From: Armatimonadota bacterium
Lineage (GTDB): Bacteria > Armatimonadota > Zipacnadia > Zipacnadales > JABUFB01
NCBI GenBank assembly: GCA_013314775.1
Contig: JABUFB010000003.1
Coordinates: forward strand, 106,622-170,621
DNA: 64,000 nt
Direction: 5' to 3'
Shown here: positions 23,967-64,000 of the stretch, piece after piece
Layout: each line of letters starts with the position of its first letter
Numbering within the stretch: position 1 is the first letter of the stretch
Program-made: the position numbers and the translations under genes
The notes under the pieces: generated by a model
What the model was told of the DNA's origin: nothing
Databases searched by the model: none
The model's input: only the letters and a program-made list of their open reading frames with translations

Positions 23967-24117
23967 TGTTCAACATCTCCTTTGGGGTCTCTTCCCGCCG
24001 AGGCGGGCCTTGCGGCTCGGCTCACCATACCTTCGCTATGCGGCGTCCAGTCCCCTGCAAAGGGTTGCGGGGCATCGGCAGGGAATGAGCTATGAACTCG
24101 TGGTGGAGGTACCACTC

Positions 24118-35305: not shown

Positions 35306-35494
35306 CGCGGACCCCCTGGACCCGAAATCGCGCACGAGCGGCTCGGCGCCCTCACTGCCTTCGGGAGGTGCCGGGCCGGCAGTCGCGGCATATTCTCCAC
35401 AGGAATGCGGTTCGCAGTTGCAGGGCAGAGTTCCTTCCCTGCGGCTCACGCTGGAGACCTGACGGATGCCGTTCCGATGCAGGGGAGCCCTTTG

Positions 35495-43758: not shown

Positions 43759-44008
43759 GGGAGCTCCTCCGGGTTGCGCGGGTTCAATGGCGCACAGAGT
43801 TGGATTCGGCACCCATCGCGGCTTTCCTGCGTGGTGGATCTTTGTGGCTCGGGCCGATCTTGCGCACATGCTGTGGGAATCGTTCCGTCGATGGGGTATG
43901 ATGGCCGGGTGACGATGGGTGGCGGTGCCGGCACCACGGCACACCAGGCGGAGTTTGGTGTGGCACCCACCCGTTGGCCAGCCAGGAGCATAGCAGGAGG
44001 CCCGTGCC

Positions 44009-44647
44009 TTGACCACTGACAGCCAGAACCGTTTCGACCGTGCCGCCGCAACCTGGGACCTCAATCCGCAACGTATCCAGCTTGCGATGACCACTGCGGA
44101 CGCCATCCGCGAGGCCGTGCCCGTCGGGCCGCATATGACCGCGCTTGAGATCGGCTGCGGTACCGGACTGGTGACGTATCCCCTCAGTGCGCATCTGAAG
44201 TCGATCCTCGCTGTGGACACGTCCGAGGAGATGCTGAAGATTCTCGGGGAGAAGATGGCCCAGCTGGGCGTCAGGAATGTGACGCCTCTCAAGGCGGATC
44301 TGACCCGAGACGACCTGCCCGACAGCGACTTCGACCTGATCTTCAGCGCCATGGCAATGCACCACATCCCGGACCCGGCCGGGATGATCCGGCGCGTAGC
44401 GGGACTGCTGAGACCTGGCGGCGCCCTTTGCATTGTGGACCTGGACTCCGAGGACGGAACCTTCCACGGGGACTCGGAGGCGGTGTACCACCATGGCTTC
44501 GGCGCTGAGGAGATGCAGGGGTTCTTCGCACAGGCGGGGCTGGTGGAGTTGAGGTCAGAGACGGTGCATGTCTTCGAACGCCCGGGCGCAGACGGTGTGT
44601 TACGGGAATACGGTGTGTTGATGACTGTGGGGAGAAAGGCGGGGTAG
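44009..44647 (+). CDS. class I SAM-dependent methyltransferase
   Basis: ORF track (TTG start, RBS AGGAGG). Motif I LEIGCGTGL; ALCIVDLD. Confidence 0.75.
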   Translation: MTTDSQNRFDRAAATWDLNPQRIQLAMTTADAIREAVPVGPHMTALEIGCGTGLVTYPLSAHLKSILAVDTSEEMLKILGEKMAQLGVRNVTPLKADLTRDDLPDSDFDLIFSAMAMHHIPDPAGMIRRVAGLLRPGGALCIVDLDSEDGTFHGDSEAVYHHGFGAEEMQGFFAQAGLVELRSETVHVFERPGADGVLREYGVLMTVGRKAG

Positions 44648-44794
44648 AGGAGCAATTGCAGGCAACGCCTGCGGATCCCGCCCGGAGCTTGGCCTTCGCC
44701 AAGACCGGTGGCGCCCCGGCCCCTGGAAGGTCTCGCGACCTGTGCCCGGAATATCCTGCCACCTGCACCTCGCCGTCCCCCGGAGGAAACTGCC

Positions 44795-46246
44795 TTGCGC
44801 GAAAAGTGGTGCATCATCCTCGTGCTCGCCTGTTTGACCTGCTCACGGGCCGCTGCTCCGGTGTATTTCGTGGATGCGGTCTCCGGCGATGACTCCAACT
44901 CCGGGCGTTCGCCGGCGGGGGCCTGGAAGACTCTCGCCCCGGTGAACGCGCTGCAACTGGAACCCGGCAGCCGGATACTCCTGCGCGCAGGCGGCGAATA
45001 CGAGGGCCCGCTGAACCTGACGGGTTCTGGCGCACTCGGCAGCCCGAACACCGTGGGGAGCTATGGCGAGGGACCGAAGCCCCATATCCTGCGGGGGCCG
45101 GGATCAGGGCCGGTGGTCTCGCTCTACAATGGCTCGCACTGGGAGATCGCCGACCTGGAGATCAGTGGCGGAACCATCGGCGTGTTCGCGTACATGAAGG
45201 AGTTCGGCATCGCCAGAAGCCTACACTTCCGGCGGCTGGACATCCACGACGTGCGCGGGAGCCTCACCGGTGATGACGGCGGGTTCCTGCTGAAGCGCGA
45301 GGGCGAGGAGACGTGGTTCGACGACCTGCTCATCGAGAACTGCACCATCGAACGCGTCGACAGAAACGGGATTCTGCTCACCGACTACCCCACCGCGAAG
45401 GATACCCATCACAGCACGGGGGTTGTGATCCGGGGCAATCACCTGCGGGACATCGGCGGCGACGGCATATTCATACTCGGCTGCGACGGCGCGGTGATCG
45501 AGCACAATGTGCTGCGCTACGCCCACCAGAGAGTTGGGCGCAGGCCGGGCGAGCGTGCCTGCGCAGGGATCTGGCCCCACCGCTGCAATGACACGCTGAT
45601 CCAGTTCAACGAGGTCAGCCACACTGCGGTCGGTGGCGTGACGGTCTGGGATAGCGAGGCCTTCGACGACGATGTGAGCTGTCGCGGCACGGTCTTTCAG
45701 TACAATTACAGCCACCACAACGCCGGGGGGTTCCTGCTCATGTGCGCGGGCTCCAGGGGCACCATTGTGCGTTACAATGTGAGCGAGAACGATGCGGTGG
45801 CCACCTTCACACTGGAGAGCGACGGGACCGGCGGGGCCACCATCCATAACAATACCATCTACGTGGGCCCGGAACTGTCGGTGACCCTCTTCCGCAACAC
45901 CTCCGGCGCCCCGGATACCCTGCGGTTTGTGAACAATATCGTCCACGCAGACGGCCAGATGGTGCACAGTCCGCGGGGCATCACCGGGATTACCTGCAGC
46001 AACAATGCGTGGTTCGGGAACATACGGAACCGGCCAGAGGACCCCGCGGCGATCCTGTCCGAGCCAGGGCTGATCGCGCCGGGCACAGGCGGCGAGGGTT
46101 TTGGGACCATCGGCGGGTACCGGCTTGTCCCGGACTCTCCTTGCCGGGGAGCAGGCACTGCTGTGCCGGGTGATCCGGGCATTGACCTGTTTGGCAATGC
46201 CCGACCCGACGGCGGAGGGCCTTGGGTCGGCGCATGTCACGGCTGA
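44795..46246 (+). CDS. secreted right-handed beta-helix repeat protein
   Basis: In frame with ORF 44708..46246; start set at TTG 44795 after RBS GGAGG. Repeated rungs (IENCTIERVD, VIRGNHLRDIGGDGIF, IEHNVLRYA, IHNNTIYVG). Confidence 0.65.
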   Translation: MREKWCIILVLACLTCSRAAAPVYFVDAVSGDDSNSGRSPAGAWKTLAPVNALQLEPGSRILLRAGGEYEGPLNLTGSGALGSPNTVGSYGEGPKPHILRGPGSGPVVSLYNGSHWEIADLEISGGTIGVFAYMKEFGIARSLHFRRLDIHDVRGSLTGDDGGFLLKREGEETWFDDLLIENCTIERVDRNGILLTDYPTAKDTHHSTGVVIRGNHLRDIGGDGIFILGCDGAVIEHNVLRYAHQRVGRRPGERACAGIWPHRCNDTLIQFNEVSHTAVGGVTVWDSEAFDDDVSCRGTVFQYNYSHHNAGGFLLMCAGSRGTIVRYNVSENDAVATFTLESDGTGGATIHNNTIYVGPELSVTLFRNTSGAPDTLRFVNNIVHADGQMVHSPRGITGITCSNNAWFGNIRNRPEDPAAILSEPGLIAPGTGGEGFGTIGGYRLVPDSPCRGAGTAVPGDPGIDLFGNARPDGGGPWVGACHG

Positions 46247-48620: not shown

Positions 48621-49130
48621 ATGCAATACCGGATTCTCGCGACGCTATCCAAGCCGCAGGGGCGAGTCCGGTGCGAAATTGACGCACCGGCACCCTATGG
48701 CGCGGGCGGGGAGTTCGTGGGTCCGGTGATCGGATATGTGGAACTTGAGAATGCCGATTCCCTCGTGACCGCGCGGGGCCGGTTGCATGCGACTGCGGTC
48801 TTGCCGTGCAGCCGTTGCCTTGCCGATCACGTCGTGGAGCTGGACGCTGAGGTCTATGAGCAGTGCTCGTTGACCCAGATTGACGAGCCTTCGATGTGGG
48901 AAGCCGGCACGGAGGAGCCTATCCCGCTTCTGAGTGGCGACCTGGTGGACCTGAGTGAACTGGTCCGGCAGGTGTTGGTCCTCAATGTGCCGTCGCGTTC
49001 CTTATGCCGGCCCGACTGTGCGGGCTTGTGCCCCCGATGTGGCAGGAACCTGAGCGACGGACCATGCGGCTGCGGCGAGGACGACGTGGATCCGCGCTGG
49101 GCCGGGCTTCGCGATCTCATCGACGACTGA
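48621..49130 (+). CDS. yceD: YceD/DUF177 family protein
   Basis: ORF track. C-terminal Cys motifs CSRCL and CAGLCPRCGRNLSDGPCGC; followed by rpmF. Confidence 0.8.
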   Translation: MQYRILATLSKPQGRVRCEIDAPAPYGAGGEFVGPVIGYVELENADSLVTARGRLHATAVLPCSRCLADHVVELDAEVYEQCSLTQIDEPSMWEAGTEEPIPLLSGDLVDLSELVRQVLVLNVPSRSLCRPDCAGLCPRCGRNLSDGPCGCGEDDVDPRWAGLRDLIDD

Positions 49131-49559: not shown

Positions 49560-50573
49560 ATGCTCATAGCTCTGGATGCCATGGGCGGGGACTTGGCCCC
49601 CGACGAGGTTGTGCGCGGCGCCTTGCTGGCTGCGGACTGCCTTGAATCACAGGTGGCGCTCTGCGGCCAGGAAGACAGGATTCGCGCGCTTATCGCCGGT
49701 CACGCGGGAGCCGATCGGATGATCATCCGCCCGGCCACCGAGATCGTCGAGATGGAAGACAGCCCGCGCGTCGCTCTGCGCGGCAAGCCGGATTCCTCGG
49801 TTGCCCGCACCGTTGAGATGGTTCTCTCCGGTGAAGCCCAGGCGTGCGTCTCCGCCGGCAACAGCGGCGGGTTCATGGCCCTGTGCCACACGCGGTTGAA
49901 AACGATCCCTGGCATTGCCCGGCCGGCCATCGCGCTTTTCCTGCCCACGAAGCACGGCCCGCGGATCTTGCTGGATGCCGGCGCCAATGCGGACTGCAAA
50001 CCGGAATACCTGGTGCAGTTTGGCCTCATGGGCAGCATCTACGCCGAGTTCGCGCTGGGCATGAAGGCGCCGCGGGTGGGTTTGCTGAGCATCGGCACCG
50101 AGGCGCACAAGGGCAACGAACTGACCCAGGCCGCCATGCCGCTCATGGAGAAGGCCCCGATCAACTTCATCGGGAATGTAGAGGGCGACCAGGTTTTCGC
50201 AGACGATGACGTGGATGTCATCGTCTGCGACGGTTTCGTTGGCAATGTGGTACTGAAGGTTGCTGAGGGTGTCGCGGGTACGCTGGTTGACGTCCTTCGC
50301 ACCGGCATCAAACGCAGCGCGTGGGCGAGGATGGGCATGCTGTTCATGCGCGGCCCGTTCAAGGCGCTGCGAGATCTCTTCGACTATGGCACGTACGGCG
50401 GGGCGCTCTTACTGGGTGTCAACGGCATCTGCGTCGTCAGCCACGGTAAGTCTGACGCCTTCGCCATCAAGAACGCCTTGCTTGTTGCGGAGCGCGCGGT
50501 GAAGGGCCGGGTGGTGGAGCACGTCCGCGATACCTGCCGGGAGCTGTTCCCCGAGGCGTCTGTCCCTGCCTGA
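49560..50573 (+). CDS. plsX: phosphate acyltransferase PlsX
   Basis: ORF track. MLIALDAMGGD..., SAGNSGGFMA, ILLDAGANADCKPE. Confidence 0.9.
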   Translation: MLIALDAMGGDLAPDEVVRGALLAADCLESQVALCGQEDRIRALIAGHAGADRMIIRPATEIVEMEDSPRVALRGKPDSSVARTVEMVLSGEAQACVSAGNSGGFMALCHTRLKTIPGIARPAIALFLPTKHGPRILLDAGANADCKPEYLVQFGLMGSIYAEFALGMKAPRVGLLSIGTEAHKGNELTQAAMPLMEKAPINFIGNVEGDQVFADDDVDVIVCDGFVGNVVLKVAEGVAGTLVDVLRTGIKRSAWARMGMLFMRGPFKALRDLFDYGTYGGALLLGVNGICVVSHGKSDAFAIKNALLVAERAVKGRVVEHVRDTCRELFPEASVPA

Positions 50574-50725
50574 AGGCAGTACGCGCACGCCCCCAGATCC
50601 GCGGGATCTTTCGTGCCCATGCGAGGGCGGCGTTCAGGGACAATGGCCCGGCACCTGCGGGGCACCCGATCACATTGGCCGCTGCGCGCGAACTTGCCCG
50701 CCGCGGCGGCGAGGGACTCAAGACC

Positions 50726-51715
50726 ATGGAAGTTCGAGGCGCTTGTATCAAAGGTCTTGGCGCGTACGTGCCTGAGCGCGTGCTCACAAACCAGGACCTG
50801 TGCGACATCGTTGACACCAGCGACGAGTGGATCGTCGAGCATACGGGCATCCGTGAGAGGCGCATCCTCGCCGATGATCAAGCCAGTTCCGACCTGGCCT
50901 TCGAGGCAGCCCGCAAGGCCCTGGAGAACGCGGGCATCAGCGTCGATGATCTGGACATGATCATCGTTGCAACGATCACTCCGGACATGCCTTTCCCCGC
51001 AACTGCCAGCATCGTCCAGGACATGCTGGGCGCCAAAGGTGTCGGCACCTTCGACGTTGTGACCGGCTGCACCGGTTGGGTGCAGGCGCTGGTGACCGGC
51101 TCGCAGTATATCCAGACCGGGGCGGCTGATCACGTCCTGGTGATCGCTGCCGAATCCCTGACGCGCATCACCAACTGGACCGATCGCTCGACCTGCGTGC
51201 TCTTCGGTGATGGGGCCTGTGCCGCTGTTCTCGGGCCATGTGCGCCCGGGCAGGGGCTCTTGGCCTTCGCCATGGACACCCAGGGCGACTCTGCCGAACT
51301 CCTGATGATCCCCGCGGGCGGCAGCCGCACCCGCCTCACCCCCGAAGCTCTCGCGGACTACCAGCACCTGCTGCAGATGGACGGCCACGAAGTCTTCAAG
51401 CTCGCAGTGCGCGGCGTGCCGGAGATCGCGCGGCGCTGCATGGAGAAGGCCGGCCTGGAGATGTCGCAGGTTGACGTCTGCGTTCTGCATCAGGCGAATC
51501 TGCGGATCATCGATGCCGCGGCGAAGCGGCTGGACATCCCGTACGAGCGCATGGTCATCAACCTGGATAAGTACGGGAACACATCGGCGGCTTCAGTGGG
51601 TATCGCGCTGGATGAGTACGCGCGGGAGACAGGTCTCAAGCCCGGGGACGTCGTCCTGCTGGTTGCCTTCGGGGCCGGCTTCAGCCTCGCTTCCGCTGTC
51701 TTCCGGTGGACTTGA
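50726..51715 (+). CDS. fabH: beta-ketoacyl-ACP synthase III FabH
   Basis: In frame with ORF 50675..51715; start set at ATG 50726. Active-site region VVTGCTGWVQAL, HQANLRII, YGNTSAAS. Confidence 0.9.
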   Translation: MEVRGACIKGLGAYVPERVLTNQDLCDIVDTSDEWIVEHTGIRERRILADDQASSDLAFEAARKALENAGISVDDLDMIIVATITPDMPFPATASIVQDMLGAKGVGTFDVVTGCTGWVQALVTGSQYIQTGAADHVLVIAAESLTRITNWTDRSTCVLFGDGACAAVLGPCAPGQGLLAFAMDTQGDSAELLMIPAGGSRTRLTPEALADYQHLLQMDGHEVFKLAVRGVPEIARRCMEKAGLEMSQVDVCVLHQANLRIIDAAAKRLDIPYERMVINLDKYGNTSAASVGIALDEYARETGLKPGDVVLLVAFGAGFSLASAVFRWT

Positions 51716-51864: not shown

Positions 51865-53013
51865 ATGGATTTCAGCTTCACCGAGGAACAGCAGGAGATC
51901 TTCGACGCCGTTGACGAGATCTGCGCCGACTTCAAGGCGACCGCTTGTGAGGTCGATGAGGCTGGCGAGTACCCTTGGGACAACATCAAGGTCATGGCCG
52001 AGTGTGACCTGTTCGGTGTGCCGGTTCCCGAGGAATGGGGCGGCATGGGCATGGGCTTCCTGGAATGGGGAGTCATCGGCGAGAAGCTGAGCGCTGCCTG
52101 CACCACCACCGGGGCCGTCTACGCTGCCCACATGCTGTGCATGTACCCGATCATGGCCTTCGGCACTGACGAGCAGAAGGACAAGTATCTGCGCGACCTG
52201 GCCAGCGGCAAGAAGATCGGCGCCATGGGTCTCACTGAGCCCAACGTGGGTTCCGATGCCGGCTCCGTCCAGACGCGTGCCGAAAAGCGCGGCGACAAGT
52301 ACATTCTCAACGGCACAAAGATTTTCATCACCAATGGCGGGGACGCGGAGACCTACGTGGTCGTAGCCAACAGCGCGCCTGATCGCGGGACCCGTGGTCT
52401 GACGGCTTTCATCCTCGAGAAGGGCATGCCCGGTTTCTCCTTCGGCAAGGATGAGAAGAAGATGGCGTACAACTCTCTGTCCAACCGCGAACTGATCTTC
52501 GAGGACTGCGAAGTTCCCGCGGAGAACGTGCTGTACAAGGAAGGCCGGGGCTTCCGCGTGGCCATGGATCTGCTGGACATCGGCCGCATCGGTATGGCTG
52601 TGGGCGCGGTTGGTCTTGCCCAGGCGGCGTACGATTGCGCCGTGCAGTATTCGCTGGTGCGCGAGCAGTTCGGGAAGAAGATCAGCGAATTCCAGGCCAT
52701 CCAGTTCCACCTCGCGGACATGGCCACCGACATCGAATGTGCCCGGTTGCTCGCCTACCAGGCCGCATGGATGAAGGATCAGGGCCTCCCCTTCAGCAAG
52801 CAGGCCGCGATGGCCAAGCTGTACGGTTCCGAAGCGGTCTCTCGCGTGTGCTCCAAGGCTGTACAGATTCACGGCGGACACGGCTACACCTGCGAATACC
52901 CGGTGGAGCGGTACATGCGCGAAGCCAAGCTGTTTGAGATCGTGGAGGGCACGTCCGAGATCCAGCGCGGCGTCATCGCCCTCGCCCTTCTGCGCGAAGC
53001 CATCAGCAAGTAA
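51865..53013 (+). CDS. acyl-CoA dehydrogenase (short-chain / butyryl-CoA dehydrogenase-like)
   Basis: ORF track. [16 protein letters not shown]..., [48 protein letters not shown]. Confidence 0.9.
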
Positions 53014-53087
53014 ATGCCGAACAACAGCGGGTCAGGCGTCGGGGGAGACGATCTCACGGCGCCGGGTCCTTGACGAGGGCTTACAGC

Positions 53088-53870
53088 ATGAAGATCATCG
53101 TCTCGATCAAGCAGGTGCCGGACACCACCGAAGTGCGCATCAACCCGGAAACGGGCACCCTCATGCGCGACGGCGTCCCCAGCATCATCAACCCCTTCGA
53201 CGAGAATGCCATCGAGGCCGCGCTCCAGCTCAAGGAGGAGCATGGCGGTGAGGTAACCGTCATCACCATGGGGCCGCCGCAGGCCGAGGAAGCCCTGCGT
53301 CAGGCAATCGCGATGGGCGCCGACAACGCGCTGCTCTTGTGCGACCGCGCCTTCGCTGGAAGCGACACCCTCGCCACCGGCTATGCCCTCTCCCAGGCCG
53401 TACGCAAGATCGGGGATTTCGATTTGATTCTCTGCGGCAAGCAAGCTTTCGACGGAGACACCGCGCAGGTACCGCCCGGCCTTGCCGAACAGCTTGGCAT
53501 CCCTCAGGTCACCTACGCCATCGAAATCAAGGTGGACGGTAAGAAGGTCCGGGTCAAGCGGCTGCTGGACGACCGGTTCGAGGTGGTGGAGGCGCCGATG
53601 CCCTGTTTGATCACGGTGGTCAAGCAGATCAACGAGCCGCGCCATGCGGGGCTCAAGGGTGTCATGAAAGCACGCAAGGTCGAGATCCCGTGTCTCACAG
53701 CGGAAGACGTCGGTGCGGACCTTGAGCGCTGCGGTCTGTCGGGTTCGCCCACAAACGTCATGCGGGTGTTCGCCCCCAGCCACGACCACAAGGCCGAGAG
53801 GCTGGAGGGCGATGTGCCCGACGTGGCGCGCCAACTGGTGAGCCGGCTGCGGGATGCCAAGGTTCTCTGA
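53088..53870 (+). CDS. etfB: electron transfer flavoprotein beta subunit
   Basis: In frame with ORF 53070..53870; start set at ATG 53088. MKIIVSIKQVPDTTEV..., NPFDENAIEAAL, LILCGKQAFDGDTAQV. Confidence 0.85.
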   Translation: MKIIVSIKQVPDTTEVRINPETGTLMRDGVPSIINPFDENAIEAALQLKEEHGGEVTVITMGPPQAEEALRQAIAMGADNALLLCDRAFAGSDTLATGYALSQAVRKIGDFDLILCGKQAFDGDTAQVPPGLAEQLGIPQVTYAIEIKVDGKKVRVKRLLDDRFEVVEAPMPCLITVVKQINEPRHAGLKGVMKARKVEIPCLTAEDVGADLERCGLSGSPTNVMRVFAPSHDHKAERLEGDVPDVARQLVSRLRDAKVL

Positions 53871-53931
53871 ACAGGGAGCCGCAAGCCGGCCCCGACCCGT
53901 GGGGCGGCAAATCCACGCTACAGGGATCACA

Positions 53932-55128
53932 ATGTCTATACACATCGATGTCGATAAGTGCGTCGGCTGCAAGGTCTGCATCAGCGCCTGCCCGTACGGG
54001 GCGATCGTGGTTGAGGACGGCAAGGCTCGCTTCACCGAAGATTGCACGGGTTGCGGCGCCTGCGCATCCTCCTGCAAGTTCGGCGCAATCATCCTCGAAG
54101 TACCGAAGATGGCCGACGTGGACACCAGCGCCTACAAGGGCATTTGGGTCATCGCCGAACTGCATGACGGCAAGCTGGCCGACGTGTCGCTGGAACTCCT
54201 GGGCGAGGCATCCCGCCTTGCAGCAGACCTGGGTACGGATGTGTCTGTCGCGATCGTGGGCGAGTCCGTGGAGGCTCTCGTTCCCACGGCCGCTGCCCAT
54301 GGAGCCGACCGGGCGTACATCGTGGAGCACGAGGTGCTCTCGCAGTACCGCACCGGGCCCTTCAGCGACGTGCTCACCGGGCTGATCAACACCCACAAGC
54401 CCGAAATTGTCCTGTTCGGCGCAACGCCCATGGGCCGGGACCTTGCCAGCCGTATCGCCGCGCGCATCGGAGCGGGCCTCACCGCGGACTGCACCGGGCT
54501 GGATATCGACCCGGAGACCAAACTCCTGCGCCAGACCCGCCCGGCGTTCGGCGGCAATATCATGGCGACGATCCTGTGCAAGCAGGCTCGCCCACAGATG
54601 TCCACTGTGCGCCCACGCGTCATGAAGAAGATCCCGCCGCGCGAGAACGCCCAATGTGAGATCGTGCGCACCCAAGTGAATCTCAACGAGAAGGCAGTCC
54701 TCACCAAGATCATCGAGGTCATTCAGGAAGAGGGCGGCTCGAAGGTGAACCTGCAGGACGCCGAGATCATCGTCTCCGGCGGCCGCGGGATCAAGAAGGC
54801 TGAGAACTTCGCGCTGATTCGCGAGCTGGCCGATGCCCTGGGCGGCGTTGTGGGCGCGTCCCGCGCAACGGTGGATGCCGGCTGGATCCCCGCTTATCAC
54901 CAGGTCGGTCAGACCGGAAAGACCGTCCAGCCCAAGCTCTACGTGGCCTGCGGCATCTCCGGCGCAGTCCAGCACCTCGCGGGCATGTCCTCCTCCGACA
55001 CCATCGTGGCCATCAACACCGACCCGGACGCGCCGATCTTCAAGGTGGCGCATTACGGGATCGTTGGCGACCTGTTCGAGGTCATTCCGGAACTCGTGAA
55101 GGCGCTCAAGGAGGAATTCGGCAACTAG
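53932..55128 (+). CDS. etfA: electron transfer flavoprotein alpha subunit with N-terminal 2x[4Fe-4S] ferredoxin domain
   Basis: In frame with ORF 53854..55128; start set at ATG 53932. [12 protein letters not shown] and [12 protein letters not shown], then a standard EtfA body ([21 protein letters not shown]). Confidence 0.85.
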
Positions 55129-55155: not shown

Positions 55156-56082
55156 ATGATCGCTTACGTCTTCCCCGGCCAGGGCTCGCAGTTCGCGGGC
55201 ATGGGCAAGCAGATCGCGGGCGAATCCGCCATCGCGGAGGAAGTGTTGCGCGTGGTGGATGACGCCCTGGGCTTCTCCCTCACCGAGATCATGTTCGGCG
55301 AGGACGCCGACGCGCTCACACCCACCGAGATCCAGCAGCCCGCTATTTTCGCACACAGCGTGGCAACCTTCGCGGCGCTGCGCAAACGGCACGCGGAGGG
55401 GCCCGCGCTGGTGGCCGGCCACAGCCTGGGAGAGTACTCGGCAGTGGTCGCGGCAGGGTGTCTGGAGCTTGAGGAGGCAGCGCGCCTGGTGCGTAAGCGG
55501 GGCGAGCTGATGGCCGCCGCCGCAAGCCAGGTAGGCGGGGCAATGGCCGCGATCCTGAAGATGGAAACCGCGGACGTCGAGCAACTCGTTCAGGATGCGG
55601 CCGGCGAGGGCGTCCTGAGTGTTGCGAATTTCAACAGCCCGGGTCAGGTGGTTATCTCCGGCGAAAAGGCCGCGGTAGACGCCGCCTGTGCGCTGGCCAA
55701 GGAGCGCGGGGGACGGAGCATCCCGCTCAAGGTCAGCGGCGCCTTTCACTCCCCGCTCATGGCCCCTGCCGCAGAGATGCTCAGGCCGGAGCTCGAGGCC
55801 GTGCACCTGTCCGACGCGACAGTCCCGATAGTCTCCAACGTGGACGCCACGGCGCGCACTGAGGCAGACGGGATTCGCCAGGCGCTGATCCATCAGGTGA
55901 CGGGGAGCGTGCGGTGGGAGGACTCAGTCCGGACGATGATTGCTCAGGGTGTGGACTGCTTTGTAGAAGTCGGGCCGGGTAATGTGCTGGCGAAGCTGAT
56001 CGAGCGCATCGACAGCAACGTGCGCGTGGCCAGTGTCGGCACGCTGGCGGAGATCAATGCGTTCGTGGAATCACTGGGCTAA
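55156..56082 (+). CDS. fabD: malonyl-CoA:ACP transacylase FabD
   Basis: ORF track. MIAYVFPGQGSQFAGMG, active-site GHSLGEYSA. Confidence 0.9.
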   Translation: MIAYVFPGQGSQFAGMGKQIAGESAIAEEVLRVVDDALGFSLTEIMFGEDADALTPTEIQQPAIFAHSVATFAALRKRHAEGPALVAGHSLGEYSAVVAAGCLELEEAARLVRKRGELMAAAASQVGGAMAAILKMETADVEQLVQDAAGEGVLSVANFNSPGQVVISGEKAAVDAACALAKERGGRSIPLKVSGAFHSPLMAPAAEMLRPELEAVHLSDATVPIVSNVDATARTEADGIRQALIHQVTGSVRWEDSVRTMIAQGVDCFVEVGPGNVLAKLIERIDSNVRVASVGTLAEINAFVESLG

Positions 56083-56120
56083 ACAGGGCGCAGTTGCCCG
56101 TTGACACCGGAGGTCGCAGC

Positions 56121-56861
56121 ATGGATCTTGACGGAAAAATCGCAGTCGTAACCGGAGCCGGCGGACTGATCGGCCGCGCAATTGCCCTGACGCTCGCGGG
56201 CGATGGAGCGGATATTGTGGTGAATGATCTGGTGGAGGAGACCGCGAAGGAAACCGCCGCGATGGTGGAAAACCTGGGGCGCAAAGCACTGGTCACCGTT
56301 GGCAGCGCTGCGAAGGTGGAAGACGTTGAGAGCATGGTGGAGCAGACGCTGGACCGGTTTGGCCGGCTTGACATCATGATCAACAATGCGGGGATTACCC
56401 GCGACGGCCTGCTGGTGCGCATGAAGGATGAGCAGTGGGACCTGGTGCTCGACGTCAACCTCAAGAGCGCATTCCTGTGTACCCGTGCGGTTGCCCGGCC
56501 GATGATGAAGCAAAAGAGCGGGCGCATCGTGAACATCGCGTCGGTCGTGGGTGTTATCGGGAACGCGGGGCAGGCCAACTACTCCGCTTCGAAGGGCGGC
56601 TTGATCGCCTTGACGAAGACCACCGCGAAGGAGCTTGCCAGCCGCAACATCCTGTGTAATGCGGTGGCGCCCGGCTTTATCGAGACCCCGATGACCCACC
56701 AGCTCAGTGAGGAGGCCCGCAGCGAATGGCTGAAGGGGATTCCGCTGGGCCGGCCGGGAACGGCCCAGGATGTGGCCGACGTGGTGGCCTTCCTGTGCGG
56801 CCCCAGGTCGTCCTACCTGACCGGGCAGGTAATCAGCATCTGCGGTGGAATGGTTATGTAG
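56121..56861 (+). CDS. fabG: 3-oxoacyl-ACP reductase FabG
   Basis: In frame with ORF 56094..56861; start set at ATG 56121 (RBS GGAGGT). VTGAGGLIGRA, NNAGI, YSASKGG. Confidence 0.9.
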   Translation: MDLDGKIAVVTGAGGLIGRAIALTLAGDGADIVVNDLVEETAKETAAMVENLGRKALVTVGSAAKVEDVESMVEQTLDRFGRLDIMINNAGITRDGLLVRMKDEQWDLVLDVNLKSAFLCTRAVARPMMKQKSGRIVNIASVVGVIGNAGQANYSASKGGLIALTKTTAKELASRNILCNAVAPGFIETPMTHQLSEEARSEWLKGIPLGRPGTAQDVADVVAFLCGPRSSYLTGQVISICGGMVM

Positions 56862-56961: not shown

Positions 56962-57204
56962 ATGGCACTGTTCGAGAAGGTCAAGGAAGTCATCGTGCGC
57001 GAGCTTTCCGTGCCCGAAAGCAAGGTCACCGAGAACGCCTCGTTTGATGGCGACCTGAGCGCCGACTCGCTGGACGTTGTTGAGCTCGTCATGGCTCTCG
57101 AGGACGAGTTCGACGTGGAGATTCCGGAAGAAGACGCCGAGAAGATTCAGACCGTGGGCGACGCCGTGCGCTATCTCGAGGCCAAACTTGGCGGCGAGGC
57201 ATAG
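56962..57204 (+). CDS. acpP: acyl carrier protein
   Basis: ORF track. 80 aa; phosphopantetheine site [20 protein letters not shown]. Confidence 0.95.
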
Positions 57205-57332
57205 TATCGACAGGTATGCGGTCCATAGGGGGATTCGGGCCACGGTAAGCGAGCCGCTAGAGGCTGCCGGACGGCCGGGGTCCCCCTGCTTCGTTACGTG
57301 CGAACGGATCGGCGGCGAGAGGGGGCGGTCCT

Positions 57333-58145
57333 GTGAAGGGCCCCTGTCAGGTCTGTGGCTCGACCGACATCCGTGACTACGTGAAGCATGAGGAGGGTCA
57401 CTACCTGCGCTGCGCCGGCTGCGGGCTGGTCGTAAACGCAGATGCTGACGAGTTGGCGGCCCGGTCCGTCGAGCACTACGACGACGAGGCCTACTTCCAG
57501 AACTATCAGCTCCGCACGGCCAGGAAAACCCGCTCCGCGGCTCGTCGGATCAGGATCATCCGCAGGTACGTGCCGTCAGGGCGTCTGCTGGATATCGGCT
57601 GTGGTGTCGGAGAGACACTGATCGCCGCCCGCGATGCGGGCTTTGAGCCCGTGGGCCTCGACGTCGGCAAGTACCCGGTCGAGCACTGTCGGGGCCTGGG
57701 GTTCGAAGTTCACCGGGCTTCAATCACCCGGACCGGCCTGCCCGACGATAGCTTCGACGTAGTGACCATGTGGGATGTGATCGAGCATATCCCGCGCACC
57801 AGCGAGGGGCTGCGGGAAGTTCGGCGGATACTCAAGCCGGGCGGTCTTGCCGCCATCATCACTCCATCGTGCGAGTATCTGCGCGCCCACCTCTGGCGTC
57901 AGACGTATCGGGGTTACCGCGGGAACTGGGCAAAGACTCATCTTGTGTACCATCACTCCCGCACGCTGGACCGGGTCCTGCGGGAGTGTGGTCTTGTGCC
58001 GGTGCCAGGGGCTGCGCTCTATGCGACTACCCTTCCGGGCTTCCTTTTCGAAAGCGCGCGGTCGGCATTGCGGCTGACCAAGAATCTGTTTGTGTTGGCC
58101 CGAAAGGAAGCCGGGCCGGCGGGACGCGAAAACGTTGAGGAATAG
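57333..58145 (+). CDS. class I SAM-dependent methyltransferase with N-terminal CxxC...CxxC zinc ribbon
   Basis: ORF track (GTG start). CQVCGS...CAGCG; motif I LDIGCGVGE; LKPGG. Confidence 0.7.
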   Translation: MKGPCQVCGSTDIRDYVKHEEGHYLRCAGCGLVVNADADELAARSVEHYDDEAYFQNYQLRTARKTRSAARRIRIIRRYVPSGRLLDIGCGVGETLIAARDAGFEPVGLDVGKYPVEHCRGLGFEVHRASITRTGLPDDSFDVVTMWDVIEHIPRTSEGLREVRRILKPGGLAAIITPSCEYLRAHLWRQTYRGYRGNWAKTHLVYHHSRTLDRVLRECGLVPVPGAALYATTLPGFLFESARSALRLTKNLFVLARKEAGPAGRENVEE

Positions 58146-58155
58146 GAGAGTAAGC

Positions 58156-59397
58156 ATGTCCCACCGAGTCGTCGTGACAGGTATCGGTTGTGTGTCGTCG
58201 GTTGGGCATTCTCTGGAGGATGCCTGGTCCGCGGCCCTTGAGGGACGCACAGGCATCAAGACCATCTCCATCTTCGACACTACCGACTACGACGTGCACA
58301 TCGGCGCGGACATTCCAGACTGGGACCCCACCCAGTACATGGATGGCAAGGAAGCCAAGCGCTGCGACCGCTTCACGCAGTTCGCCATTGTGGCTGCCGA
58401 CCAGGCGATAGCCCAGGCCGGGCTCAAGATCACCCCCGAGAACCAGTATGACGTGGGCGTCATTTGCGGTTGCGGAATCGGCGGCATGTGGACCTGGGAG
58501 GAGCAGTACACGAAGCTCATCACCAAAGGTCCGGGCCGAGTATCGCCCTTCCTGGTCCCGGTGATGATCGTGGACATGGCTGCCGGGATGATCTCCATGC
58601 GCACGGGCGCCAAGGGCCCGAACTACGCGACTGTGAGCGCCTGCGCCAGTGCAACCCATGCCATTGGGAACGCATTCGAGACCATTAAGCACGGGACTGC
58701 GAGAGCCATCATCACCGGCGGCACTGAAGGCGCGATCTCTCCCACCGGACTCGGCGGATTCTGCGCTGCGAAGGCCCTGTCCACCCGCAATGACGAGCCT
58801 GCCACAGCGTGCCGTCCCTTCGACAAGACCCGGGACGGTTTCGTCATGGGCGAGGGCGCCTGCATCATCATTCTGGAGGAACTGGAGTTCGCCCGTGCAC
58901 GGGGAGCCAATATCCTCGCGGAGATCGTTGGCTACGGGATGACCGCGGACGCATACAATATGGTGGCCCCGGATCCATGCGGGGAAGCCGCCGCCAGGGC
59001 GATGCTGACCGCCATCGATGAGGCCGGACTGTCCGTCACCGACATCGACTACGTGAACGCCCACGCCCCGGGAACGCCGGGCGGAGATGATATGGAGGCC
59101 CGAGCCCTGCAGTTGCTGTATGAGGGCAAGAACTACTCCCCCATGGTCAGCTCGACCAAATCCGTCCATGGGCACATGCTGGGCGCGACGGGTGCGATGG
59201 AGCTGGCACTGTCCATCAAGATGATGCAAGAGGGCATTGTGCCCTTGACCCTCAACTGCCACGAGCCGGATGATGACATCTGGATTGATGTTGTCCGGGA
59301 GGAGCACCGCTCAGCCCGGATCGACACCCTCATGAGCAATTCCTTCGGCTTCGGTGGGCACAACGCGGTCGTCGTCGCGCGGCGTTACGAGGAATAG
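58156..59397 (+). CDS. fabF: beta-ketoacyl-ACP synthase II FabF
   Basis: In frame with ORF 58090..59397; start set at ATG 58156 (RBS AGGAGAG). Catalytic Cys in ATVSACAS; His motifs NAHAPGT and HGHMLGATG. Confidence 0.9.
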   Translation: MSHRVVVTGIGCVSSVGHSLEDAWSAALEGRTGIKTISIFDTTDYDVHIGADIPDWDPTQYMDGKEAKRCDRFTQFAIVAADQAIAQAGLKITPENQYDVGVICGCGIGGMWTWEEQYTKLITKGPGRVSPFLVPVMIVDMAAGMISMRTGAKGPNYATVSACASATHAIGNAFETIKHGTARAIITGGTEGAISPTGLGGFCAAKALSTRNDEPATACRPFDKTRDGFVMGEGACIIILEELEFARARGANILAEIVGYGMTADAYNMVAPDPCGEAAARAMLTAIDEAGLSVTDIDYVNAHAPGTPGGDDMEARALQLLYEGKNYSPMVSSTKSVHGHMLGATGAMELALSIKMMQEGIVPLTLNCHEPDDDIWIDVVREEHRSARIDTLMSNSFGFGGHNAVVVARRYEE

Positions 59398-59431
59398 CGC
59401 CGCGCACGGAGGCCCCTGCGAGGTCTACTTC

Positions 59432-60196
59432 TTGGCTTCAGACCGGCCGGACCAAGGGCAGCGGGCCGACCCGCTGCACGATGAAGCGCGCTGGCAGGCG
59501 GTGCGAGAGAAACTCGGCCTGCCCGAAACCGTTTCGCTGCAGACCCTCGCGGCCGCCTTCACGCACACCTCCTTCGCCCGCGAAGCAGGCTTGGGGCCCT
59601 GGGTGGCCAACCAGCGCCTGGAGTTCCTGGGTGACGCCGTTCTTGATCTGATCCTGGTCGAACACCTCTACCGCGCCTACCCCACTGCTCCCGAGGGCAA
59701 TCTCACGAAGATGAAAGCGTACGCGGTTCGCGCCAGCACGCTGGCCCGGGTCGCGCGTCAGCTGGGGCTGGGTGACTACATGCTCCTGGGCAAGGGTGAG
59801 GAGGATACCGGCGGCCGCGGCAAGACATCACTTCTGGAGGACTGCATGGAGGCCGTGGTGGGTGCGGTCTATCTGTCCACTGACCTTGAGACTACCCGCA
59901 GATTCGTGATGACCGTGTTCGAGCCTGTGCTCGAGGCGATGACCAGCAGCGAGCTGGTCTACGACCACAAGACAGAACTCCAGGAGCTTCTGCAAGAGCG
60001 GACGAAGCAGACGCCTTCTTACGTGACCGTGGACACCATCGGGCCGGCCCATGAACGGACCTTCGTGGTGGAGGTTCGCTTCCGTGGAATGACCATTGGA
60101 TCCGGTGAAGGGCCAAGCAAACAAGCCGCCCAGCAACAGGCGGCCCGGGAGGCTCTCGATAACCGCGACTGCTGGCTGCCCGAGCTTCCGACCTGA
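59432..60196 (+). CDS. rnc: ribonuclease III
   Basis: In frame with ORF 59354..60196; probable TTG start at 59432. Signature ERLEFLGDAVL; C-terminal dsRBD. Confidence 0.85.
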   Translation: MASDRPDQGQRADPLHDEARWQAVREKLGLPETVSLQTLAAAFTHTSFAREAGLGPWVANQRLEFLGDAVLDLILVEHLYRAYPTAPEGNLTKMKAYAVRASTLARVARQLGLGDYMLLGKGEEDTGGRGKTSLLEDCMEAVVGAVYLSTDLETTRRFVMTVFEPVLEAMTSSELVYDHKTELQELLQERTKQTPSYVTVDTIGPAHERTFVVEVRFRGMTIGSGEGPSKQAAQQQAAREALDNRDCWLPELPT

Positions 60197-60217: not shown

Positions 60218-61687
60218 TCAGTCAGGGCGAGCTCCCATCCGCGCGGTTGGCAGCATACCATCCAGGTCCACCAACACCAGCCTCACTGCGCCTGCCACCC
60301 TCCGCGCCAGATAGACACTCCCGCTTGGTCTCGCGCTCAGTGATACAGCGCCCAGGTCCGGCACGTCCACGGAGACCCCTTGCGTCGGGCCGTCAGCAGC
60401 CCACGCCACCAGGAGCCACTCCGGCCGCTCCCTGTGCTTCCGCGCAAGCACCCGCACCTGATTCGAGCCCGTGGGCAGCTCGTACGCCGGCAGGTCCTTT
60501 GACCACACGTGCCGGTTAGGTCCGGGCAGGAGTTCACTCTCCCGAACGAACTGCTCCAGGTGCGAGAACAGCGCCTGCACATGCCCCAGGCACATGAGTT
60601 GCCAGATCCAGTTGTCCACCGGATCATAAGCGAAGTACCCGGCCACACCACCAATCATCCCCGCCGTGTAGTAGCATTTCAGATAGCCCATGTACCGTTC
60701 CGCATCAGACATCGGCGGGTTGGGTCTGCCGGTGTCCGGCCAGCCCGGGTTCATCCAGTTGTACGAGAGCGGCTGGCCTGCGGCGATGTGCTGGGCGGTG
60801 GCGTTGAGGGCTTGGGTGAGAGCGTCATTGTCCCCCGACCAGCCGGAGTTGAAATGCTTCCAGTAGATCGAGCTGCTGGGCAGGTCCGACACGGGCTTCA
60901 TGAAAGCATAGTCCCACGTCCACTGCCACCAGTTCGCATAGCGGTCCCGGTGGGGGCAGCCCTCGGTGGGGTAGTAGACGTACGTGAGCCGGTCGGGGAC
61001 CAGTTCGCGGATGCGCTCGGTGATGATCATCTCCTGGTGGGCCTTGCGCTCGGAGATGTATTCGAACCAGTCGCGGTCTCCCCGCGCTGCGACGACCTTC
61101 GGGTCCTTCTCCCAGTACTTCAGGTGATGCCCGACGGTGCTCAGACCGTACTCGCCGCCGTTGGTGATGACCGCGACGGGCGCCAATGCCAGCACCTGCT
61201 TGAGCATGTTCGCCTCGTAGTCGGCGATCATGTCGAAGGTACTGTCCGGCGCCTCGGGGCTGAAAATGCGCTGGCCGTCAGGAAGCCGGCCGTTCTCGTC
61301 AGTGCACCAGGTCTCGGCCGGAAGTTGATCGGTGAAGTCGCGGATCGAGAACGCTGGGGCGATGGTGACATGCAGCGGGTAGCGCTCGGGGTTCTCGGCC
61401 GCAAGCGCGCAGACCTTCGCTTCGACGCTTGCAGGATCACTCAGGCGCGCCAGCATGTCAGGGCGAATGCGCCCGAACTGGAGAGCATATCCCCAGTTCT
61501 CGCACAGCTCCCGGCGGATCTCCAGGCTGAACTCGGGTCCCCAGGTGGTGAGAGGGATGAGGGTGTGGCCTTCGCGAAAGACGGGCTTCGGGCCAACGCG
61601 AAGTTGCTCGAGCGCGGTGGCGGTGAAGGCTGCTGGAAGCCACACGAGCAAGACGAGCAGGACAATGGCAGGACGGCGCATCTTCAT
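60218..61687 (-). CDS. secreted hypothetical protein
   Basis: In frame with ORF 60218..61702; start at ATG 61687 or 61681 (RBS AAGGAG); signal peptide MKMRRPAIVLLVLLVWLPAAFTA. Trp/Tyr-rich; no family recognised. Confidence 0.5.
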   Translation of the reverse strand: MKMRRPAIVLLVLLVWLPAAFTATALEQLRVGPKPVFREGHTLIPLTTWGPEFSLEIRRELCENWGYALQFGRIRPDMLARLSDPASVEAKVCALAAENPERYPLHVTIAPAFSIRDFTDQLPAETWCTDENGRLPDGQRIFSPEAPDSTFDMIADYEANMLKQVLALAPVAVITNGGEYGLSTVGHHLKYWEKDPKVVAARGDRDWFEYISERKAHQEMIITERIRELVPDRLTYVYYPTEGCPHRDRYANWWQWTWDYAFMKPVSDLPSSSIYWKHFNSGWSGDNDALTQALNATAQHIAAGQPLSYNWMNPGWPDTGRPNPPMSDAERYMGYLKCYYTAGMIGGVAGYFAYDPVDNWIWQLMCLGHVQALFSHLEQFVRESELLPGPNRHVWSKDLPAYELPTGSNQVRVLARKHRERPEWLLVAWAADGPTQGVSVDVPDLGAVSLSARPSGSVYLARRVAGAVRLVLVDLDGMLPTARMGARPD

Positions 61688-61725
61688 CACGCTCCTTGAC
61701 ATCGAGAGTTAGATTCGCGCACCGT

Positions 61726-62583
61726 TCACGCGTCCTGGAAGGCGCCAGGGACGGCCCAGGCGGCTCGCTCGGCCTGTGTGAACGCCGGGAAGGCGTAGTA
61801 GAACCAGACCAGTGCGAACAGAGCGGTCGCGGCAGCGGTCATGGCGAGAATTGCGTTCAGGTAAGCCTCTGGATCAGTCTCCTGAAGCCCTCGGAACAAG
61901 TCCTCGATGATGAGGGTGGGGACAAGTACCCCCACCAGCGCCATGAGCGGGGGCGCGATCCGGGCCCGTGTCGCCCTCTGGATGCGGCTGCGTCCACGGT
62001 TCATGGCACCGGACAGAGCCTTGCCCTCCACTGTTACCACCTCGCCGCCATGCATGCGCACCAGGGTCTGCAGCGCCTCCAGCACGGGAGCCTTCACGGC
62101 GCGCTCTGACCATACCGCGCACGTGATCCCGTCACGGTCCTCCCACTCCAGCCAGAACCGGCGGCCATGCACCAGAAGCCGGCGCAGTTGGGCCGGCGGG
62201 ATGGTGAACGCGTCCGAGACCCCGGCGAGACTCACTCCACCCGGCCCCACCGCAATCCAGCGCAGACCCCTCGGGCCGCTGCGCGCCAGGAACGAGTCGT
62301 CGCTGGTCCCTACATGCTCGCGCGCGATGCGGCGCAGGTCGTTGGTCATGCCGGAGAGCATCAGGAAGGGAAGCAGGAAGACGACGGCCACGATCACCAA
62401 CACCGCGGCCACGACACCACCAGGGATGTCCCCGCCCCACTGTCTCTGAAGCAGCCACGCGATGAGTAAGCGCAATGAGGCGACCCAGAGGAATGCCAGG
62501 GCAACCACAACGAGGGTGATCTTGCCGGCGCGGTCGAAATGAGTGGTCAGCTTCGCCCTCAGCGGGTCAAGGGTTGCGTTCAT
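61726..62583 (-). CDS. hypothetical membrane protein
   Basis: ORF track; several hydrophobic segments; no family recognised. Confidence 0.45.
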   Translation of the reverse strand: MNATLDPLRAKLTTHFDRAGKITLVVVALAFLWVASLRLLIAWLLQRQWGGDIPGGVVAAVLVIVAVVFLLPFLMLSGMTNDLRRIAREHVGTSDDSFLARSGPRGLRWIAVGPGGVSLAGVSDAFTIPPAQLRRLLVHGRRFWLEWEDRDGITCAVWSERAVKAPVLEALQTLVRMHGGEVVTVEGKALSGAMNRGRSRIQRATRARIAPPLMALVGVLVPTLIIEDLFRGLQETDPEAYLNAILAMTAAATALFALVWFYYAFPAFTQAERAAWAVPGAFQDA

Positions 62584-62607: not shown

Positions 62608-64000
62608 TCACTCCCGCACGAGCTCATACCACACAGTCCGGCAGTCGGCCCCGAGGACCAGGGCGCCGTTGGCTGCCTCGACGCGGCGGCCCCTCGTTCC
62701 CGAACCATCCAGCGCGTAGGCAACCAGGCCGCCGTCTGCGAAACGCAGCGTCGCGGGGACTGGCTCGGCAACAGTCGGCCCTTTGCCCCAGTTGCGGCCC
62801 ACGGTGCGGCGCGCTTCGTCCCACACCATGCCCTGGTTCTCCACGCGGCTCATGAGCACCAGCAGCATGCGGCCGGACTCTGCAAGCGACTTGCCGTCCA
62901 TACTGGTCAGGCCCACCGCCGCCCAGCCGTTTGATGTGTCCCCCAGGGCGATCTCCACGCCCGGCCTGAGATTGAGCGTGGTCCCGGCCACTGAGCCTAT
63001 GATTGCGCAGGTCCGTTCCGTCTCGACCCGGAAGGGAATGTCTTCCCGGGGTTCCGACGCCCAGGTGATCTCGCCGGTATCCGACTGGATGCTTGCGGTG
63101 TCCTGTGGGAGGCTCACCTTTGGGGCCGAGACCTCGCCATCGGGGACGAACTCCACGGCAAGACGATGGCGGATGGATGCGATCCTTGGCACCCCTGCTG
63201 CGTCCCAAACGGAACCCGCGCTGTTGCCGTGCTTCGCAAGCAGCGTCACGATCTGATTTTCCGGCACCCGCAGCCGGATCTCCTCGCGGGCCGCACTGAC
63301 ATCCCCGCGCCTGAAGAGATTGGCAGCGATGGGGAACCAGGCGAGCTTCGCGGGGTCGGTGACCATCTGGAAATAGCCGTTGATCCTCGCATCTTCCCAC
63401 TGGGTCGGAGTCCTGCCGTAGTCGAACTCGAAGATGCCGTCCCAGTCCTGCAGGCCCGCGAAGGCCGCGAGCATTGGCATGCATTCGGCCCGGTAGTCGC
63501 CGGGCGCCGGGTGGTTGTACTCGCTCACCGTGAAAGGCAGGCCTGCCACACGGTGCCGGGCGAGAGCGGTCAGCGTATCCCTGCCCGCCGCCGCGGCCAT
63601 GGATGTATTGCCGATGCTCCAGTTGCCCGGGTCCCAGGGCCGCCCTGGAAAGCTGGGATGCTGCCAGTAGGAGTGCGTGTCCACGTAGTCCAGGCGAGAT
63701 TCGCGCCAGACGCCACCGATGCCGCCGTAGGATGCCTGGGTATCCACCACCAGCGCCTTCAGGCCCAGTTCGTCCTTGAGCATCCGGTGAAATGGCCGGG
63801 TGTAATCCTGCTCGAGCTTGACGAAGAACGCCAGCCAGTCTTCCCAGGCTCGGGCGGTGCTGCTGCGGCTGGAGAAGGCGACGTTGCCCGCTTCAAGCGA
63901 CTGGTCCTCGCCCAGGCCCCGGATTCCACCGGGACGCAGGCTGATATCCGCCAGCCAGACACTGCCCAGGCTGTTCTGGCAGTTGAAGCTGAAGCGGCTG
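62608..64000 (-). CDS. hypothetical protein, possibly a TIM-barrel glycoside hydrolase; N-terminus lies beyond the window end
   Basis: ORF track shows 62608..63783, but the same reverse frame stays open with protein-like sequence to position 64000, so the gene is probably 5'-truncated by the window edge. Confidence 0.45.
   Translation of the reverse strand, partial: SRFSFNCQNSLGSVWLADISLRPGGIRGLGEDQSLEAGNVAFSSRSSTARAWEDWLAFFVKLEQDYTRPFHRMLKDELGLKALVVDTQASYGGIGGVWRESRLDYVDTHSYWQHPSFPGRPWDPGNWSIGNTSMAAAAGRDTLTALARHRVAGLPFTVSEYNHPAPGDYRAECMPMLAAFAGLQDWDGIFEFDYGRTPTQWEDARINGYFQMVTDPAKLAWFPIAANLFRRGDVSAAREEIRLRVPENQIVTLLAKHGNSAGSVWDAAGVPRIASIRHRLAVEFVPDGEVSAPKVSLPQDTASIQSDTGEITWASEPREDIPFRVETERTCAIIGSVAGTTLNLRPGVEIALGDTSNGWAAVGLTSMDGKSLAESGRMLLVLMSRVENQGMVWDEARRTVGRNWGKGPTVAEPVPATLRFADGGLVAYALDGSGTRGRRVEAANGALVLGADCRTVWYELVRE

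Follow-up and report, generated by a model that had tools for sequence, protein, structure and literature searches.

A zinc-ribbon methyltransferase gene between acpP and fabF in a subgroup of Armatimonadota

We analysed a 64,000-nucleotide stretch of DNA from an Armatimonadota bacterium (contig JABUFB010000003.1; hereafter the window), in which an open reading frame (ORF) lies between acpP, the gene for acyl carrier protein (ACP), and fabF, the gene for beta-ketoacyl-ACP synthase II. The ORF is best explained as coding for a functional accessory methyltransferase dependent on S-adenosylmethionine (SAM), in which a four-Cys zinc ribbon is predicted to pack on a Rossmann-type class I core. Comparison of related loci indicates that the gene is a lineage-specific insertion into the ancestral acpP-fabF spacer in one subgroup of uncultured Armatimonadota. 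The protein forms a new and narrowly distributed subfamily within a well-known enzyme class, and it is unusual in its location only. Its placement in eight distinct loci and its tight coupling to fabF would fit a function in the metabolism of fatty acids or lipids.

The gene and its product

The GTG codon at which the ORF begins is the first possible start codon, and there is none earlier in frame. An identical protein from an Armatimonadetes metagenome-assembled genome is labelled 'class I SAM-dependent methyltransferase' in NCBI. The GC contents of the three codon positions (0.67/0.48/0.76) are like those of the neighbouring genes and give a coding-type third-position GC (GC3); the GC content of the window is 64.5%. 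The ratio of nonsynonymous to synonymous substitution rates (dN/dS) of the methyltransferase gene was 0.19 and 0.18 in comparison with the loci L007 and L171, respectively, whereas it was 0.02-0.09 for plsX, fabH, fabD, fabG, acpP, and fabF and 0.11 for rnc. Since the protein was modelled as a confident fold (described below) and the gene shows coding-type GC3 and a dN/dS of 0.18-0.19, it is real, intact, and under purifying selection, which is more relaxed than that on the fatty-acid synthesis (FAS) genes.

The spacer between acpP and the methyltransferase gene covers 57205-57332 and measures 128 nt. An earlier note, made from the letters of this DNA, had placed the ORF at the correct coordinates but gave this distance as 129 bp, one base too many. 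The gap of 10 nt before fabF in the same note was confirmed, as the stop codon TAG occupies 58143-58145 and the fabF ATG is at 58156; this ATG is the in-frame start that agrees with the N-termini of FabF orthologues. A putative ribosome-binding site precedes the methyltransferase gene, and the Shine-Dalgarno sequence of fabF overlaps the methyltransferase stop codon (Table 1). Neither a sigma-70-like promoter nor a canonical T-tract terminator was predicted in or around the methyltransferase gene. We infer that the gene is co-transcribed with fabF and, in the window, translationally coupled to it.

The protein shows both hallmarks of a class I SAM-dependent methyltransferase, a Rossmann-like fold of alternating beta strands and alpha helices and a GxGxG motif I. 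The Pfam model Methyltransf_23 matched it with 77.2 bits (cut-off 27), and Methyltransf_11, Methyltransf_12, Methyltransf_25, and Methyltransf_31 matched with 67.7, 54.3, 53.0, and 45.7 bits; the gathering thresholds of these five models, 21-30 bits, were all exceeded. No NCBIfam model came near its cut-off: the best was DVU_1556 (50 bits versus 155), and the UbiG, MetW, and UbiE models scored 26-33 bits. The AlphaFold2 model, for which an alignment of 70 sequences was the input, had a mean predicted local distance difference test (pLDDT) score of 93.3 and a predicted template modelling score of 0.91, and consisted of a beta-hairpin ribbon and three helices that form a lid, together with a methyltransferase core of the standard type.

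The four Cys residues of the ribbon were invariant (4/4) among 18 relatives (alignment A1). Among 70 relatives (alignment A2), C27 and C30 were invariant and C5 and C8 were at least 90% conserved. In the model, the ribbon segment forms beta-hairpins with a pLDDT of 93-97, and zinc-ribbon models of Pfam and NCBIfam match it weakly, under cut-off (E 0.002-0.003). The Pfam scores, the conserved Cys residues, and the structural model therefore agree with the description in the earlier note of a class I SAM-dependent methyltransferase with an N-terminal CxxC...CxxC ribbon. Conserved Tyr and numerous Arg residues are found in the lid helices, and the protein is basic overall with an isoelectric point (pI) of 8.9.

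Conservation of the gene order

The order acpP-methyltransferase-fabF was found in eight distinct Armatimonadota loci: the window, L007, L171, L176, L001, L004, L170, and L167. The position that the earlier note had reported is thus not peculiar to the window. Two further loci, L002 and L003, have the same protein and gene order as L001. Across the eight loci, identity to the window was 55-83% for the methyltransferase, 63-92% for FabF, and 92-99% for ACP. The methyltransferase gene and fabF are separated by 10 nt in the window, L007, and L171, by 32-53 nt in L004, L170, L176, and L167, and by 195 nt in L001. In L167 (344-2016), two tandem methyltransferase paralogues, 2 nt apart, lie between acpP and fabF; their identities to the window protein are 43% and 59%, and the first begins 35 nt after acpP.

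The closest homologues form a tight clade of 17 proteins (P0001-P0017) with 41-100% identity to the window protein, below which identity drops sharply to a large family whose members do not exceed 38%. The fab-embedded methyltransferases were monophyletic, and P0015/P0016 and then P0017 branched outside them; the trees in this study were constructed by neighbour joining and carry no support values, and the gene contexts derive from metagenomic contigs, some of which are short. An exhaustive profile search, which covered 1.84 billion representative proteins, yielded 409 matches at E <=1e-30. Because only six of these exceeded 240 bits, the clade appears to be very small. A scan of species-representative genomes detected one close orthologue only, that of L007, and a metagenome scan with the clade profile gave only distant relatives (24-38% identity) among the matches listed, which enlarged the set for the neighbourhood statistics below. 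In the 159 loci that belong to more distant relatives (<=41% identity), the methyltransferase gene never had acpP or fabF beside it, which indicates that the association is specific to the clade and is not a habit of the family. In the cluster of P0002 (83% identical to the window protein), MDI9587157.1 is labelled Acidobacteriota in NCBI and the others Armatimonadota; the discrepancy probably arose in binning or labelling. In the literature, we found no pertinent report of a methyltransferase between acpP and fabF, nor one on the lipids of Armatimonadota.

When FabF homologues were used as the anchor, four related Armatimonadota loci devoid of the methyltransferase gene were located: L172, L173, L174, and L175, with FabF 66%, 60%, 59%, and 67% identical to that of the window, respectively. 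In all four, acpP is followed directly by fabF after a spacer of 128-483 nt, and in L172 and L173 the order is the canonical rpmF-plsX-fabH-fabD-fabG-acpP-fabF-rnc. A tblastn search of these spacers with the 17 clade proteins gave chance matches only (E >=0.16), and no methyltransferase remnant. The spacer of L175 (7518-8000) is unusually long, at 483 nt, and contains no called gene and no detectable remnant. The description of this position as normally empty is therefore supported among close relatives. Since four related loci do without the gene, it is dispensable or accessory. In a FabF tree, L172 and L175 were placed within the carriers of the gene or adjacent to them. This patchy distribution may stem from a single gain that was followed by loss, or the tree may be unreliable.

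Parent family and structural relatives

The clade derives from a large zinc-ribbon Methyltransf_23 family whose genes normally reside in glycosyltransferase clusters. Members of this family, found in Chloroflexota, Planctomycetota, Armatimonadota, and others, were aligned at E 1e-36 to 1e-23 with 25-38% identity over ~80% of the protein, and they share the four-Cys ribbon, motif I, the His after beta4, H203, the length, and the fold. The family signature (four Cys, EH after beta4, and H203) was 94-100% conserved. Among 154 loci of distant relatives, the most frequent neighbours were GT2 glycosyltransferases (44 loci), GT4 glycosyltransferases (35), a second methyltransferase (29), FAD amine-oxidase/GLF-like oxidoreductases (14), NAD epimerase/dehydratases (13), PMT_2 GT-C glycosyltransferases (10), and B12 radical-SAM enzymes (10). 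Some members are fused to GT2, GT4, or TPR giants or to a second methyltransferase. In contrast, neither a glycosyltransferase nor a sugar-nucleotide gene was found beside the methyltransferase gene in any of the eight fab-embedded loci.

The fab-embedded clade also differs from the glycan-cluster family in its pocket. L86, G89, and G93 of motif I are invariant or nearly so throughout the family, and H152 of the post-beta4 motif is invariant, whereas R155 of this motif is clade-specific and is Asp in 70% of the wider family. Similarly, H203 is found family-wide (98%), while H207 is clade-specific and is replaced by Phe in 81% of the family. The substitutions of the clade relative to the parent family, namely EHVPD to EHIPR (D155R), S182Y, R186H, G189R, W192Y, F207H, and others, cluster just after beta4 and in the beta5-beta6 linker, where they add His, Tyr, Arg, and positive charge.

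The best full-length structural matches were zinc-ribbon NDP-sugar C-methyltransferases. The NDP-hexose C3-methyltransferases share the N-terminal four-Cys zinc domain, and the superposition on 3NDI takes in the ribbon, with 224 residues aligned. These enzymes (TcaB9, KijD1, and MtmC, of the TylC3 type) are ~400-420 aa long and possess a C-terminal domain, which binds the sugar nucleotide; the window protein ends at residue 270 and lacks that domain. Its identity to TcaB9, KijD1, and MtmC is 14-18%, there are no sugar-nucleotide genes near its gene, and neither Methyltransf_13 nor Methyltransf_14 of Pfam matched it at E <=0.01. A characterised orthologue was not found. The earlier note had named clear orthology to a methyltransferase of unrelated function as grounds for giving up its reading, and no such orthology emerged.

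Possible substrates

Because the pocket of the clade gains basic, His, and Tyr residues and the gene is located in the FAS operon, we tentatively propose that the protein is an accessory enzyme which is co-expressed with FabF and methylates an anionic molecule derived from FAS, either an acyl-ACP or a membrane lipid. The gene would be transcribed and translationally coupled with fabF, and the enzyme would be made whenever FabF is made. Its substrate would be an anionic product of the surrounding pathway, such as an ACP thioester, a fatty acid, or the head group of a phospholipid or glycolipid, the last in the manner of PmtA. Such an activity would tune the lipid composition and would not serve core fatty-acid synthesis.

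In Rt-PmtA, a catalytic Tyr is located in an N-terminal helix, the post-beta4 His (His117) and a Ser are at the lipid phosphate, which His117 contacts, and Arg residues bind the membrane (PMC11446283). The window protein contains Tyr49, Tyr54, and Tyr58 and Arg-rich helices; its core was aligned with that of Rt-PmtA at E 3.6e-7, and from the alignment coordinates only, H152 would correspond to His117. Phosphoethanolamine and phosphatidylethanolamine N-methyltransferases were among the best structure and sequence matches, but these matches are generic: PmtA (Rt-PmtA, 8YS9) and the phosphoethanolamine N-methyltransferases match the common core only, and dozens of other methyltransferases match at least as well. 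PmtA lacks a zinc ribbon, and the window protein matches no PmtA-type family model.

Several observations weigh against the proposed action on a FAS-derived molecule. All of the synteny goes back to one vertically inherited insertion and is thus weak evidence of a functional link, and, like rnc here, unrelated housekeeping genes border fab clusters elsewhere. Four related loci lack the gene, and in two of them, L172 and L175, FabF is as similar to that of the window as is FabF of some carriers. P0015 and P0017 carry the same EHIPR/HxVYH signature and yet lie outside fab clusters. By the neighbourhoods and fusions described above, the parent family is tied to the synthesis of glycans or envelope glycoconjugates, and the closest full-length structures are those of sugar C-methyltransferases. 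In addition, a strong hairpin stands between acpP and the methyltransferase gene. Since there was a single insertion, the parent family is glycan-linked, and sister lineages lack the gene, action on an acyl-ACP or a lipid is stated here conditionally.

It is nearly as likely that the methyltransferase is a passenger, which keeps a substrate unrelated to FAS (a glycan, a glycolipid sugar, a small molecule, or a macromolecule) as in the parent family, and which landed in a long permissive acpP-fabF spacer and was retained only because the cluster is rarely rearranged. This explanation is almost on a par with our proposal because of the single insertion, the glycan pedigree, the signature-sharing relatives outside fab clusters, and the absence of the gene from L172, L173, L174, and L175. 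It is also consistent with the dN/dS of the gene, which is two to ten times that of the FAS genes, and with the presence of rnc, another unrelated gene that rides in the cluster. The persistence of the insertion argues against it: the gene was inserted within an essential operon, with the ribosome-binding site of fabF overlapping its stop codon, has been kept down to 55% identity, and has been duplicated in place. The passenger explanation is also at odds with the missing C-terminal NDP-sugar-binding domain of the sugar C-methyltransferases, with the lack of accompanying glycosyltransferase and sugar-nucleotide genes in all eight loci, and with pocket residues that differ from those of the glycan-cluster family. 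If the passenger explanation is correct, the gene is an example of an accessory gene trapped within one of the most conserved bacterial operons. If the enzyme instead acts on an acyl-ACP or lipid, it would point to a modification of lipids confined to this lineage, within a phylum that is little known and mostly uncultured, and a compact free-standing methyltransferase that plugs into type II FAS could help in the engineering of branched or methylated lipids.

A more specific version, which we consider unlikely, is that a free-standing methyltransferase of type II FAS acts on ACP-tethered intermediates to give methyl-branched or methoxy fatty acids. Examples would be C-methylation of malonyl-ACP or 3-oxoacyl-ACP and O-methylation of 3-hydroxyacyl-ACP, after which the products would enter the FabF/FabG/FabZ cycle. 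The nearest mechanism would then be that of the C-methyltransferase domains of polyketide synthases and the AprA-type malonyl-ACP methyltransferases, class I enzymes that act on an activated carbon or the carboxyl of an ACP thioester. However, these are domains of megasynthases and are not free-standing genes of type II FAS operons, and the likeness is conceptual. If this activity were real, it would open a route to modified bacterial lipids for which, biotin synthesis aside, no precedent in type II systems has been described.

The earlier note had drawn an analogy with BioC, which would mean that the protein O-methylates the free carboxyl of malonyl-ACP to lead to pimeloyl-ACP methyl ester for biotin. 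We regard this as very improbable, and the identity as BioC was rejected. Like BioC, the window protein is a class I SAM-dependent methyltransferase of similar size, and it is encoded next to acpP and fabF; BioC has an ACP-bound substrate, and its product is elongated by FabF-type enzymes. AbBioC docks acidic ACP through a patch of Lys and Arg (PMC11661456), and the basic charge of the window protein (pI 8.9) with its extra Arg could do likewise. However, the BioC models TIGR02072 and PRK10258 scored 21.9 bits (cut-off 184.95) and 19.5 bits (342), and were outscored on the window protein by UbiG, MetW, and DVU_1556. BioC lacks a zinc ribbon and is not a top structural match; no specific similarity to the solved BioC (8X8I/8X8J) was seen, and 8X8I was missing from the structure and sequence matches listed. 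Whereas bioC normally occurs in bio operons, no bio gene (the earlier note had recommended a check for such genes) and no pimeloyl-ester esterase turned up across the 64-kb window and the flanking regions of the related loci; no bioF, bioA, bioD, bioB, or esterase gene is conserved nearby. The absence of the gene from sister lineages likewise speaks against this role. Over-production of BioC is toxic and stops growth through depletion of malonyl-ACP (PMC11661456), so that a slot coupled to fabF would be hazardous for a BioC-type enzyme. The BioC lead is thus unsupported and is not a first priority.

An RNA or protein methyltransferase tied to rnc or translation, of the RlmA type or activated by Trm112, is equally improbable. 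RlmA is an rRNA methyltransferase with a zinc ribbon, and its architecture (ribbon plus class I core, ~270 aa) appears similar; Trm112-partnered methyltransferases (6f5z, 5cm2) were among the structure matches, rnc lies two genes downstream, and yceD/rpmF lies upstream. Yet no model of RlmA, Trm, or any other RNA methyltransferase in Pfam or NCBIfam came near its cut-off, no RlmA structure was among the listed PDB matches, and the adjacency of rnc and yceD is ancestral, being present without the methyltransferase gene. Methylation at C5/C6 of branched glycerol dialkyl glycerol tetraethers was dropped as a candidate, as the literature on their methylation genes gave no supporting evidence; methyl transfer to an unactivated carbon would be improbable for a class I methyltransferase.

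The surrounding gene cluster

The methyltransferase gene belongs to a same-strand cluster in the order yceD, plsX, fabH, acyl-CoA dehydrogenase, etfB, Fer4-etfA, fabD, fabG, acpP, methyltransferase, fabF, and rnc (Table 1). In every full-length related locus, rnc comes after fabF, whether the methyltransferase gene is present or absent. The genes downstream of rnc vary among the related loci.

Table 1. Features of the acpP-fabF region and the surrounding cluster in the window
Feature	Position	Strand	Remarks
yceD	48621-49130	+	
plsX	49560-50573	+	
fabH	50675-51715	+	
acyl-CoA dehydrogenase	51865-53013	+	
etfB	53070-53870	+	
Fer4-etfA	53854-55128	+	etfA fused to an N-terminal ferredoxin
fabD	55156-56082	+	
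fabG	56094-56861	+	
acpP	56962-57204	+	acyl carrier protein, 80 aa; orthologues with PP-binding Pfam domains
Hairpin	57226-57288	+	long, GC-rich, just 3' of acpP
Putative ribosome-binding site of methyltransferase gene	57317-57325	+	GAGAGGGGG; read from the sequence
Methyltransferase ORF	57333-58145	+	GTG start, 270 aa; NCBI NSW55052.1
Zinc ribbon	57345-57422	+	C5-x2-C8...C27-x2-C30; conserved Cys, modelled beta-hairpins
SAM-binding motif I	57585-57611	+	LLDIGCGVG, residues 85-93; within the Pfam methyltransferase matches
Post-beta4 motif	57783-57797	+	EHIPR, residues 151-155
HLVYH	57939-57953	+	residues 203-207
Shine-Dalgarno sequence of fabF	58144-58148	+	AGGAG; read from the sequence; overlaps the methyltransferase stop TAG
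fabF	58156-59397	+	beta-ketoacyl-ACP synthase II, 413 aa; TIGR03150 562.5 bits (cut-off 493.75); Pfam ketoacyl-synt N- and C-terminal domains
rnc	59354-60196	+	RNase III; Pfam Ribonucleas_3_3, Ribonuclease_3, dsrm; true start probably slightly downstream of 59354

The hairpin behind acpP was predicted by folding of 57205-57300 (-46.8 kcal/mol, z = -2.8). When the spacer and the start of the gene were folded together, the energy was not better than that of shuffled sequences (z -1.05), and no Rfam family matched the spacers or the hairpin. The hairpin sequence is conserved in L007 and L171, and different hairpins occur at the same place in L170, L004, and L174. Since hairpins are found both with the methyltransferase gene and without it (L174), this structure is an older feature of the 3' end of acpP, and the methyltransferase gene is situated between it and fabF. 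The hairpin may act as an attenuator or an mRNA stabiliser, which would then set the ratio of acpP to fabF expression.

The genes for acyl-CoA dehydrogenase and the electron transfer flavoprotein (Etf) subunits form an insertion between fabH and fabD (51865-55128), and the ferredoxin domain at the N-terminus of etfA is of the 2x[4Fe-4S] type. The same insertion was found in L001, L004, L007, L170, L174, L175, and L176. It is independent of the methyltransferase gene: among the four loci without that gene, L174 and L175 have the insertion, whereas L172 and L173 do not. The best family matches of these proteins were the clostridial acryloyl-CoA reductase subunits AcrC, AcrB, and AcrA, all under cut-off. 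The insertion could encode an Etf-dependent enoyl-thioester reductase that replaces FabI or FabK; a literature search found nothing pertinent on Etf-dependent enoyl-ACP reduction. This insertion may be a more rewarding target than the methyltransferase.

Other features of the window

A thiamine pyrophosphate riboswitch (RF00059, 76.8 bits; 16615-16719, + strand) is located directly upstream of a gene for a Thi4-family thiazole synthase (16753-17601). Several large proteins are encoded elsewhere: a GH116 protein with F5/8 type C domains (1572 aa; 31826-36544, - strand), a GH38 alpha-mannosidase (1654 aa; 40087-45051, - strand), and a heparinase II/III-like protein (1391 aa; 24010-28185). Four long ORFs have coding-type GC3 and no Pfam match (60218-61702, 61726-62583, and 62608-63783 on the - strand, and 7204-9966 on the + strand). 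A homologue of lauroyl/myristoyl acyltransferases of the lipid A biosynthesis type (Lip_A_acyltrans, E 4e-43) is encoded at 21040-22134 on the + strand, which hints that the organism may possess lipopolysaccharide or a related acylated envelope lipid.

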